A stretch of 64,000 nucleotides of DNA from Escherichia phage FL23. Numbering within the stretch: the stretch's first letter is position 1; each line of letters begins with the position of its first letter. The position numbers were made by a program, and so were the translations under genes. Below, piece by piece: positions 15,828-19,800 of the stretch. The stretch lies in sequence record PP400787; one strand, 5' to 3'. The notes under the pieces were generated by a model. The model was not told where the DNA came from, did not search any database, and saw only the letters and a list, made by a program, of their open reading frames with translations.

Positions 15828-16070
15828 ATGAGATTACAACGCCAGAGCATCAAAGATTCAGAAGTTAGAGGTAAATGGTATTTTAATATCATCGGTAAAG
15901 ATTCTGAACTTGTTGAAAAAGCTGAACACCTTTTACGCGATATGGGATGGGAAGATGAATGTGATAGATGCCCTCTTTATGAGGATGGAGAAAGCGCAGG
16001 ATTCTGGATTTATCATTCTGACGTTGATCAGTTTAAAGCTGATTGGAAAATTGTGAAAAAGTCTATTTGA
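15828..16070 (+). CDS. hypothetical protein (80 aa)
   Basis: ATG with AGGAGA SD; no recognised domain. Confidence 0.5.
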   Translation: MRLQRQSIKDSEVRGKWYFNIIGKDSELVEKAEHLLRDMGWEDECDRCPLYEDGESAGFWIYHSDVDQFKADWKIVKKSI

Positions 16071-16080
16071 GGAAAATATT

Positions 16081-16413
16081 ATGTCTGACATTCATGTAAC
16101 TGGAATTTCACAAGTAAATATTCGCTGCCAATTTAAAACTGTACCCGGGGTGACTCATATTACTTTATCACACGACCCATATTCTCGTGGAAGACAGTTA
16201 ACTGGTGTAATTAAGTTTTTCGGTGGAATTGGTGGTAATGAATTTACTATAGGCGATGAAGAAATTGTTGGCTGTAAATTAAAAGTTCAGAAAGGCGTGT
16301 TAGAACTTTTTAGTGATGAAGTTTTTGATGAAATCTCACGGGCAGTTAACAAAGGAATGTTAACGTTAATTAAAATGATTAAAGCTAGCGGATATGTTCC
16401 TGATCCTTTTTAA
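16081..16413 (+). CDS. hypothetical protein (110 aa)
   Basis: ATG with GAGGA SD; no recognised domain. Confidence 0.5.
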   Translation: MSDIHVTGISQVNIRCQFKTVPGVTHITLSHDPYSRGRQLTGVIKFFGGIGGNEFTIGDEEIVGCKLKVQKGVLELFSDEVFDEISRAVNKGMLTLIKMIKASGYVPDPF

Positions 16414-16424
16414 TAGGAGATAAT

Positions 16425-17251
<827 letters not shown>

Positions 17252-17271
17252 AATAACGCGTGGCGGAAAAT

Positions 17272-17619
17272 ATGAATTTTAATTATTACCCTATTCTATT
17301 AGAAAAAGACATGAAACAGCCAAAATGGCAAGGTCCTCAGTTTATTAAAGGTGTCTATCAATTAGTAGTTCCTAAAGACAAGATTTATAGCAGTTGTTTC
17401 ACTGAATCCGCTTGCAGTATTTTCGGTAATAGTTCTCCGTATTGGAATTTTGACATAAAGCTGGATAGAAATATCGATATTTGGTTGAAAGCTATGGATA
17501 TTGGTAATATCACGTTTGATGAGAATAATTATCATATTATTGGTCGCTTTTCCAAACGCGGTAAAGAATTATATTTCACGCCTGAAATTGAGAGAAAATT
17601 TGATGCTAAACCGTATTGA
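17272..17619 (+). CDS. hypothetical protein (115 aa) in an insertion between frd and td
   Basis: ATG 17272 (ORF track GTG 17260); no recognised domain. Confidence 0.5.
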   Translation: MNFNYYPILLEKDMKQPKWQGPQFIKGVYQLVVPKDKIYSSCFTESACSIFGNSSPYWNFDIKLDRNIDIWLKAMDIGNITFDENNYHIIGRFSKRGKELYFTPEIERKFDAKPY

Positions 17620-17663
17620 TTATTAGCTTCATAAAATGTATTATAATTTATATAAGGTACTAA

Positions 17664-18212
17664 ATGAAACAATACCAAGATTTAATTAAAGACATTTTTG
17701 AAAATGGTTATGAAACCGATGACCGAACAGGCACAGGAACAATTGCTTTGTTCGGTACTAAATTGCGTTGGGATTTAACTAAAGGTTTTCCTGCAGTAAC
17801 AACTAAGAAGCTCGCCTGGAAAGCTTGCATTGCTGAGCTGCTTTGGTTTTTATCGGGAAGCACAAATGTCAATGATTTGCGATTAATTCAACATGATTCG
17901 TTAATCCAAGGCAAAACAGTTTGGGATGAAAATTACGAAAATCAAGCAAAAGATTTAGGATACCATAGCGGTGAACTTGGTCCAATTTATGGAAAACAGT
18001 GGCGTGATTTTGGTGGTGTAGACCAAATTATAGAAGTTATTGATCGTATTAAAAAATTGCCAAATGATAGGCGTCAAATTGTTTCAGCATGGAATCCAGC
18101 TGAACTCAAGCAGATGGCATTACCGCCTTGTCATATGTTCTATCAGTTTAATGTGCGTAATGGATACCTTGACCTTCAGTGGTATCAACGATCAGTAGAT
18201 GTTTTCTTGGGT
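17664..18212 (+). CDS. td: thymidylate synthase, exon 1 (183 codons)
   Basis: MKQYQDLIKDIFENGYETDDRTGTGT...; exon ends ...gttttcttgggt, intron starts taattgaggcctgag. Confidence 0.9.
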
Positions 18213-19228
18213 TAATTGAGGCCTGAGTATAAGGTGACTTATACTTGTAATCTATCTAAACGGGGAACCTCTCTAGTAGACAATCCCGTGCTAAATTGTA
18301 GGACTGCCCTTTAATAAATACTTCTATATTTAAAGAGGTATTTATGAAAAGCGGAATTTATCAGATTAAAAATACTTTAAACAATAAAGTATATGTAGGA
18401 AGTGCTAAAGATTTTGAAAAGAGATGGAAGAGGCATTTTAAAGATTTAGAAAAAGGATGCCATTCTTCTATAAAGCTTCAGAGGTCTTTTAACAAACATG
18501 GTAATGTGTTTGAATGTTCTATTTTGGAAGAAATTCCATATGAGAAAGATTTGATTATTGAACGAGAAAATTTTTGGATTAAAGAGCTTAATTCTAAAAT
18601 TAATGGATACAATATTGCTGATGCAACGTTTGGTGATACATGTTCTACGCATCCATTAAAAGAAGAAATTATTAAGAAACGTTCTGAAACTGTTAAAGCT
18701 AAGATGCTTAAACTTGGACCTGATGGTCGGAAAGCTCTTTACAGTAAACCCGGAAGTAAAAACGGGCGTTGGAATCCAGAAACCCATAAGTTTTGTAAGT
18801 GCGGTGTTCGCATACAAACTTCTGCTTATACTTGTAGTAAATGCAGAAATCGTTCAGGTGAAAATAATTCATTCTTTAATCATAAGCATTCAGACATAAC
18901 TAAATCTAAAATATCAGAAAAGATGAAAGGTAAAAAGCCTAGTAATATTAAAAAGATTTCATGTGATGGGGTTATTTTTGATTGTGCAGCAGATGCAGCT
19001 AGACATTTTAAAATTTCGTCTGGATTAGTTACTTATCGTGTAAAATCTGATAAATGGAATTGGTTCTACATAAATGCCTAACGACTATCCCTTTGGGGAG
19101 TAGGGTCAAGTGACTCGAAACGATAGACAACTTGCTTTAACAAGTTGGAGATATAGTCTGATCTGCATGGTGACATGCAGCTGGATATAATTCCGGGGTA
19201 AGATTAACGACCTTATCTGAACATAATG
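18213..19228 (+). mobile_element. group I self-splicing intron in td (1016 nt) carrying I-TevI
   Basis: P1/IGS gcctgag pairs with exon end cttgggt; core motifs gtagggtcaagtgactcgaaa and atatagtctgatctgcat; ends ...ctgaacataatg. Confidence 0.9.
18344..19081 (+). CDS. I-TevI: I-TevI GIY-YIG homing endonuclease (intron ORF)
   Basis: 245 aa; GIYQIKNTLNNKVYVGSAKDFEKRWKRH; C-terminal Zn finger and DNA-binding domain. Confidence 0.9.
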   Translation: MKSGIYQIKNTLNNKVYVGSAKDFEKRWKRHFKDLEKGCHSSIKLQRSFNKHGNVFECSILEEIPYEKDLIIERENFWIKELNSKINGYNIADATFGDTCSTHPLKEEIIKKRSETVKAKMLKLGPDGRKALYSKPGSKNGRWNPETHKFCKCGVRIQTSAYTCSKCRNRSGENNSFFNHKHSDITKSKISEKMKGKKPSNIKKISCDGVIFDCAADAARHFKISSGLVTYRVKSDKWNWFYINA

Positions 19229-19540
19229 CTTCCATTTAATATTGCATCATATGCTGCGTTAGTTCATATTGTAGCTAAGATGTGTAATCTTATCCCAGGA
19301 GATTTGATATTTTCTGGTGGTAATACTCATATCTATATGAATCACGTAGAACAATGTAAAGAAATTTTACGTCGTGAGCCTAAAGAACTGTGCGAACTTA
19401 AAATTGATTGGCCTATAGAGTTTGAAAATTGTGACACCGAAACACAGCTTTACTGGTTAACTGAATACATGAAACCGAAAGATTTTATCCTTGAAAATTA
19501 TGAATCGCATCCGGCAATTAAAGGGAAAATGGCAATATGA
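19229..19540 (+). CDS. td: thymidylate synthase, exon 2 (103 codons; spliced product 286 aa)
   Basis: In-frame continuation [21 protein letters not shown]...; frame verified across junction. Confidence 0.9.
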
Positions 19541-19800
19541 TTTTACGATTTAAAGATACTTCTGGCGTTGTTCTTTTTACACTTCCTAACCCAAGCGAGT
19601 TAGAAGTTCCAGGACCAGAACAGCCTATTATCATTTATGGTAAAAAATATTATACTCATAAAATGACTCGTGAGTATTTTGATAATAAAATTTCCACAGT
19701 TAAAACTTCTTCAGATTGTTACTATGATATTACTGTATTAACGGAAAAACAATATGACGAATTATCAACGCGCGGGCCGTCTATGCCAGGTAGTGAATAA
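19537..19800 (+). CDS. hypothetical protein (87 aa) between td and nrdA
   Basis: ATGA overlap with td stop. Confidence 0.5.

Follow-up and report, generated by a model that had tools for sequence, protein, structure and literature searches.

The window, a 64,000-nucleotide stretch of Escherichia phage FL23 (sequence record PP400787), is 100% identical in its DNA to Escherichia phage FL44 of the genus Tequatrovirus, and the comparisons below are given under the FL44 name. Two nucleotide-metabolism genes of this phage, frd and td, are separated by a short segment that carries one open reading frame, here called ORF1. The features of the locus are as follows.

16670-17251, plus strand: frd, dihydrofolate reductase, from the open reading frame list and a 100% match to the FL44 gene annotated DHFR; the protein ends ...SVYK, with its TGA stop at 17249-17251.
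17245-17253, plus strand: left copy of the direct repeat TAAATGAAA, from an exact-match search; the alignment with T4 sets the indel boundary here.
17254-17271, plus strand: short non-coding leader of ORF1, with a weak Shine-Dalgarno-like GG at -7/-6.
17272-17619, plus strand: ORF1, 115 amino acids, ATG start, pI 8.5; a member of PHROG 1928, an uncharacterised and apparently Tevenvirinae-restricted family.
17620-17663, plus strand: spacer of 44 nt between ORF1 and td, with the td Shine-Dalgarno sequence AAGGT at 17654-17658.
17661-17669, plus strand: right copy of TAAATGAAA, containing the td start codon (17664), from the T4 alignment and the exact-match search.
17664-18212, plus strand: exon 1 of td, thymidylate synthase, from the open reading frame list and the FL44 and T4 annotation.
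18344-19081 and 19226-19540, plus strand: I-TevI within the group I intron of td, then td exon 2, from the FL44 and T4 annotation.

The VYK terminus of Frd is common to all T-even genera. The left copy of the repeat holds the frd stop codon together with an ATGAAA identical to the start of td, and the frd frame, if followed past its stop, stays open until a TGA at 17273-17275 that overlaps the ATG of ORF1. An Rfam scan of 16600-19600 at the gathering threshold returned no family, the td group I intron (approximately 18216-19225) included, a miss that may reflect the interruption of the intron by the large I-TevI ORF.

In T4 (NC_000866), in which these genes lie on the minus strand, td starts at 145112 and frd ends at 145109, producing a 4-nt ATGA overlap. 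The initial annotation of this DNA had described this overlap correctly, and its coordinates for frd, ORF1 and td are all accurate. It had also proposed that the region be aligned and the structure of the product predicted; both were carried out, the structure prediction yielding a confident model with no solved relative (described below) and the pairwise alignment of FL44 with T4 a clean indel, with exactly 416 bp extra in FL44. The gap of about 410 bp that it described corresponds to the 412 nt that separate the stop of frd from the ATG of td, the indel itself being 416 bp. In FL44 the edges of the indel form a perfect 9-bp direct repeat, TAAATGAAA, of which T4 keeps a single copy. A junction motif said to be present on both sides is indeed found as this exact 9-mer, but on the right this 9-mer is not adjoined by the TATATAA, which is 7 nt upstream. 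The 9-mer occurs seven times on the plus strand of the window, and the 611-bp region examined contains five further direct repeats of at least 8 nt; a 9-nt repeat is unremarkable in AT-rich DNA, and its weight lies only in its exact placement at both edges of the indel.

Across phage records, it is T4 that holds the minority state at the frd/td junction, and the ORF1 arrangement is the commonest. DNA of the 412-nt interval is present at 80-100% identity in 362 phage records, including T6, RB3, RB6, RB18, RB27, AR1 and PST, whereas the T4-type junction, counted with a 43-nt probe that matches only that junction, occurs in 32, half of which are T4 itself and the others about a dozen relatives. 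With the same ORF at the same position in most relatives, the earlier view of it as an unusual insertion falls. Within the T-even group (Tequatro-, Mosig-, Dhaka- and Gaprivervirus) the slot exists in three states: empty, with the ATGA overlap, as in T4; occupied by ORF1 only, as in FL44, T6 and most Tequatrovirus; or occupied by ORF3 only, as in ACG-C40 and JS98. ORF3, a 67-amino-acid ORF unrelated to ORF1, is found at 90% identity or above in approximately 135 records; in phage ACG-C40 (L010, 949-1155) its product begins MSNKLKVKDVPNAM..., the ORF starts on the frd ATGA and overlaps td through a TAATG at its end. Between Tequatrovirus and the Dhakavirus phages JS98 and JS10 its identity is 97%; more distant homologues are present in Klebsiella phages resembling Marfavirus (about 80%) and in Phapecoctavirus, which is unrelated (about 42%). 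Searches of Pfam, NCBIfam and PADLOC gave no match to it. The frd-td region as a whole was recovered from 547 records at megablast level, nearly all of which are covered by the three alleles together. The 115-codon gene is an ordinary gene presence/absence polymorphism.

Two local variations were observed beside this polymorphism. FL44 has a DUF7247 gene (16081-16413) and an ORF of 81 amino acids (16425-16670) between frd.1 (DUF5417, 15828-16070) and frd; T4 has only a 71-nt gap there, which makes this a second presence/absence polymorphism adjoining the first. In phage F2 (L016, 94-711) the end of frd differs by one base, TAAAAATGAAAT instead of TATAAATGAAAT, which places the TGA out of frame; the F2 frd is consequently 12 codons longer and overlaps the start of ORF1.

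ORF1 is a typical member of PHROG 1928 in its profile match (E=1.8e-35 to phrog_1928, residues 4-111 on profile positions 2-125 of 126), in its motifs and in its placement between frd and td. Among 45 sequences of the family there is no or almost no variation at Q16, W19, G27, Y29, G91, F93, K95, G97 and F102 (none at all at W19, G91, K95 and G97), and the window protein has every one of these residues. By tblastn, homologues at 28-46% identity were identified in 226 further records. Across the 588 listed records the search gave 588 places, one in each, and all the copies that were inspected lie downstream of frd. A homologue stands directly after frd and before td in S16 (Gelderlandvirus), PKO111 (Jiaodavirus), PM2 (Mosugukvirus) and ZX14 (Kanagawavirus), as it does in P545 (Marfavirus), CF1 (Moonvirus) and Kc304 (Winklervirus), and each of the two metagenome contigs L014 and L015 has a copy, 63-66% identical, in this slot; homologues at 28-66% identity thus directly follow frd in at least eight other genera. 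Most of the non-T-even phages examined possess a second gene of similar size behind orf1. This gene, orf2, is a paralogue of orf1, with QKKW, HGIY and GRFxKxG motifs in common, and orf2-type proteins are picked up by the ORF1 profile at E values of 1e-11 to 1e-6. L014 and Marfavirus possess an additional third gene, a homologue (79% identical) of the ACG-C40 67-amino-acid ORF. Annotated genes in these arrays overlap by 1-23 nt at nearly every boundary, and in the other genera frd, orf1, orf2, orf3 where present, and td appear to be translationally coupled. The space between frd and td is the usual home of the family, and in most genera of the Tevenvirinae it is occupied by one to three small genes: orf1, the paralogous orf2 and, in some, orf3. 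Searched exhaustively with the profile, 1.84 billion representative proteins yielded only 41 clusters, all of 37-139 amino acids, and from the contexts examined the family appears to be small and confined to T4-like phages.

The distribution of the family bears directly on whether the 416-bp segment could be a small transposable element that generated a 9-bp target-site duplication. Such an element would fit the direct repeat at both ends and also the 9-nt inverted pair TATATAAAT/ATTTATATA that is found at 17241-17249 and 17646-17654. The segment, however, encodes no transposase, and its sole ORF comes from a family that is fixed here in many genera, with a single tblastn place in each listed record and all examined copies downstream of frd; moreover, nine inverted pairs of 8 nt or more occur in this AT-rich region, and an inverted pair of this kind is therefore expected by chance. 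Transposition can be regarded as effectively refuted. Of the precise insertion at a short repeat that had been suggested, what stands is the 416-bp difference from T4 bounded by a 9-bp direct repeat; a target duplication of the transposition type does not.

In common with its neighbour td, ORF1 has changed little at the protein level. When FL44 is paired with teqskov, F2 and PHB12, whose alleles are diverged, dN/dS is 0.03-0.06, equal to that of td for the same pairs, and dS reaches 0.27-0.75. Judged by these sequence comparisons, ORF1 is a real gene under strong purifying selection. A start at the frd ATGA (17248) was considered, since it offers an ATG in frame and a metagenome protein (P0002) has a longer N-terminus, and was ruled out: this frame meets a stop at codon 3 in all T-even alleles, and the starts in L014 and L015 align with 17272. 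The leader upstream of 17272 loosely resembles the 3' end of frd in L014 and L015, and it may be the relic of a longer frd C-terminal extension that overlapped ORF1 through an ATGA, as seen in other genera.

Sequence searches with the ORF1 protein returned no match in Pfam (even at E <=10), NCBIfam or PADLOC, and a sequence profile search of the PDB found no relative. The AlphaFold model, built on the 45-sequence alignment, is confident (pLDDT 93.1, pTM 0.86) and comprises six or seven strands with one helix at residues 68-76. Its matches in BFVD are only uncharacterised proteins of T4-like phages, Aeromonas phages included, and the predicted fold matched no solved structure and no nuclease fold. 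The product is accordingly modelled as a compact beta-rich domain with one helix and is predicted to lack any signature of a nuclease or enzyme. Among the closest known systems are OB-fold nucleic-acid-binding domains (HIN, RPA/Teb1, S1 and the RecO N-terminal domain).

The seg, mob and hef genes are typically found, like ORF1, as small polymorphic genes between conserved ones, and several records of the BASEL collection label the ORF1 product a 'putative homing endonuclease'. A free-standing enzyme that cuts the empty junction and copies its own gene there by repair would also accord with the co-transfer of ORF1 and frd that is evident in the Mosigvirus PHB12 (see below). This explanation is nevertheless very improbable and, to the extent that sequence and fold can tell, refuted. 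No family member matches a GIY-YIG, HNH, LAGLIDADG or other Pfam nuclease, the Pfam search of the 45 members having given nothing meaningful, and BLASTP against the window's own I-TevI (E=2.9) revealed no similarity. With regard to the GIY-YIG domain (PF01541), residues 27-29 read 'GVY', but no conserved YIG follows, and Arg, Glu and Asn do not form an invariant set; invariance is limited to W, G, K and G, and a conserved acidic or histidine catalytic set is lacking. The confident model, in which no nuclease fold is recognised, likewise argues against an endonuclease, and the deep stable synteny, the tandem paralogues and a dN/dS of 0.03-0.06 are unlike the patchy, decaying distribution of homing genes. 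The BASEL label has no support. The homing genes of T-even phages (PMC2988022) resemble ORF1 in their position between conserved genes, their presence/absence and their co-transfer with flanking DNA, but ORF1 differs from them in having no nuclease motif, domain or fold and in its deep synteny and strong purifying selection.

The initial annotation had favoured accessory or anti-defence cargo. A small early protein of this kind, interacting with the host and located among nucleotide-metabolism genes only incidentally, would fit a gene that is small, restricted to one phage group, dispensable, variably present and exchanged, and whose predicted fold has no solved relative. Small size, variability, exchange and novel folds are common to many known anti-defence proteins. 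This role, the main alternative to the function favoured below, is, however, unlikely: the coupled position between frd and td has been kept across at least eight genera with different hosts, and selection on the gene is very strongly purifying, with no diversifying sign, unlike that expected for arms-race genes. No known defence-system model in PADLOC matched ORF1, and no paper describing the gene was found in the literature searched. The anti-defence part of the proposal is unsupported by Pfam, NCBIfam, PADLOC or PDB matches, and the family is native to the slot in at least eight other genera.

Most likely the ORF1 product is a dispensable, slightly basic (pI 8.5), non-catalytic binding protein made alongside Frd and Td. 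That it is dispensable follows from T4 and most Mosigviruses, which do without the gene, and the same absence argues against a central role in thymidylate synthesis. Our best guess at a more specific function, a tentative one drawn from gene order and translational coupling, is an accessory partner of the thymidylate-cycle enzymes. More doubtful still is the idea that ORF1 and ORF2 represent a new fold acting as a dedicated partner of Frd and Td, for example as an adaptor holding the two enzymes in the dNTP-synthesis complex or as a regulator of how they are translated. If true, this would explain why the family has remained coupled between frd and td across the Tevenvirinae, though replaceable in T4.

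ORF1 has the same orientation as frd, td and nrdA, and a terminator scan found no terminator-like site around it; for these reasons it is probably co-transcribed with the three genes. In FL44 the translational coupling of td is replaced by its own ribosome-binding site, AAGGT. A promoter scan of the region returned 10 sites against 10.3 expected, which is chance level, and the sigma-70 entry TTGATT-17-TATTAT at 17616-17644 falls within this chance-level set. The spacer between ORF1 and td measures 44 nt in FL44 and teqskov and 13-15 nt in F2 and PHB12. The additional ~29 nt of the FL44 spacer include TTAGCTTCA (17623-17631) and TATAAT (17642-17647), which together resemble a T4 middle promoter and form a candidate MotA-dependent site. 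Remnants of orf2 or orf3 were also sought in this spacer; BLASTN at word size 7 gave no match between ORF1 and td to the L014 array or to the ACG-C40 allele, and the handful of bases that do match, close to where td begins, is too short to be meaningful.

The contents of the slot have been exchanged between lineages. The Mosigvirus PHB12 (L017, 70-1586) is a mosaic in which frd and ORF1 are 86% and 88% identical to FL44 at the nucleotide level and td is 89% identical to that of p000v; a recombination breakpoint therefore lies at the ORF1/td boundary. Such exchange is not limited to T-even phages, since the ORF1 homologue of P545 (L007) groups with that of CF1 (L008) at 88% bootstrap and its Frd with those of ZX14 and L014 (94%). 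The slot contents are traded by ordinary recombination and not by a mobile-element mechanism. In this the locus is like the hypervariable intergenic slots of T4-related genomes (PMC2993671), where small ORFs are present or absent between core genes and alleles are swapped by recombination among co-infecting relatives; it is unlike them in that its occupant is one family over at least nine genera, usually coupled to its neighbours, and not a random ORFan.

How the junction came to be empty in T4 and filled in FL44 is a question of history, for which two models can be proposed. In the preferred model, to which we assign a probability of about 0.6, the T-even ancestor had an empty frd/td junction and ORF1 was re-acquired by recombination, rather than being deleted in T4. 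ORF1 would have come from a phage like that represented by L014, through a homologous crossover in the well-conserved td. On the frd side, an illegitimate join just past the recipient's frd stop would have kept six bases from the previous start of td (ATGAAA) in place as the left copy of the repeat, and the ORF1 allele would later have spread among co-infecting phages via ordinary homologous recombination in its flanks. Across genera, Td is 78-87% identical at the protein level and Frd only 44-54%, and the combination of an irregular left junction with a seamless right one fits a crossover in td accompanied by an illegitimate join near frd.

In support of re-acquisition, the empty junction, with the sequence GTATAyAAATGAAA, is found in Dhakavirus MX01, Mosigvirus p000v and Gaprivervirus VR25, each with its own flanks, and no orf2 was found in T-even phages. 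In only two of 45 pairs, FL44 with L014 and FL44 with L015, does ORF1 identity (63-66%) exceed Frd identity (48%), ORF1 being 2-31 points below Frd in the remainder. Neighbour-joining trees, which were built from short proteins and in which the donor lineage is known from two metagenome contigs only, place the ORF1 proteins of the T-even phages with L014 and L015 at 97% bootstrap, to the exclusion of ZX14, whereas Td joins L014 with ZX14 (99%) and Frd joins L014, L015, ZX14 and P545 (94%). This incongruence, coupled with the excess of identity, shows horizontal movement of ORF1 between the T-even and L014-like lineages. The transfer could have run from the T-even phages to the L014 lineage, which would let ORF1 be native to the former. 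On balance, the claim that a single ORF was inserted at the junction is retained in the sense that ORF1 probably entered a T4-like empty junction by recombination, as the empty junction of three sister genera and the discordant gene trees suggest; the event was neither special nor rare.

The second model, a serious competitor that we consider the less probable of the two, proposes that ORF1 is ancestral in the T-even phages, a state that FL44 would simply retain, and that in T4 and its fellow empty-junction phages the gene was deleted between the two 9-bp copies of TAAATGAAA, either because replication slipped or because the microhomology supported illegitimate recombination. Members of the ORF1 family occupy the slot in every non-T-even genus examined, which makes the array the deep ancestral state, and ORF1 carriers form the large majority of Tequatrovirus. 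Removal of the DNA between the two 9-mers recreates the T4 junction exactly, and the AATGA-type stop/start overlaps at the frd/orf1, orf2/orf3 and orf3/td boundaries of L014 could serve as repeated deletion points. Illegitimate recombination at short direct repeats, giving deletions and duplications, is classical in the T4 rII deletion literature. The frd-td indel is like these deletions in that its edges lie exactly on a 9-bp repeat of which the shorter allele keeps one copy, but here the functional stop of frd and start of td both fall within the repeat, so that frd and td stay translationally coupled in the shorter allele. Against deletion, the same precise event would be needed at least twice, or the empty allele would have had to spread without foreign flanks, the flanks of T4 being Tequatrovirus-like up to the junction whereas those of MX01, p000v and VR25 are not. 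No diverged native ORF1 was found in Mosig-, Dhaka- or Gaprivervirus, the PHB12 copy being an import from Tequatrovirus. The nesting of T-even ORF1 with L014 and L015 would, in addition, demand an extra transfer under the deletion model; re-acquisition is favoured because it needs no further event.

The age of the two alleles was also considered. Phages with the T4-type junction have flanks 96-97% identical to T4, the same range as in ORF1 carriers, and neither allele is therefore obviously young. On the same values the T4-type phages are not a tight young clade, which would have pointed to a recent deletion, and allele age does not help to choose between the models.

ORF1 is already catalogued as a hypothetical gene (PHROG 1928), and its presence or absence is a case of the familiar plasticity of T4-like genomes, current understanding of whose evolution is not overturned by the slot described here. 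The chief value of the analysis is a correction: the T4 reference is unusual at this locus, so that a difference from T4 does not amount to the insertion of special cargo. It also draws attention to an uncharacterised family, restricted to this group of phages and fixed in many genera between a pair of genes for nucleotide metabolism, with a confidently predicted fold for which no solved match was found. The frd-td slot offers a clean natural example of alleles, empty, ORF1 or ORF3, moving between phage genera by recombination, in which stop/start overlaps may act as microhomology for the loss and gain of cassettes without breaking translational coupling.
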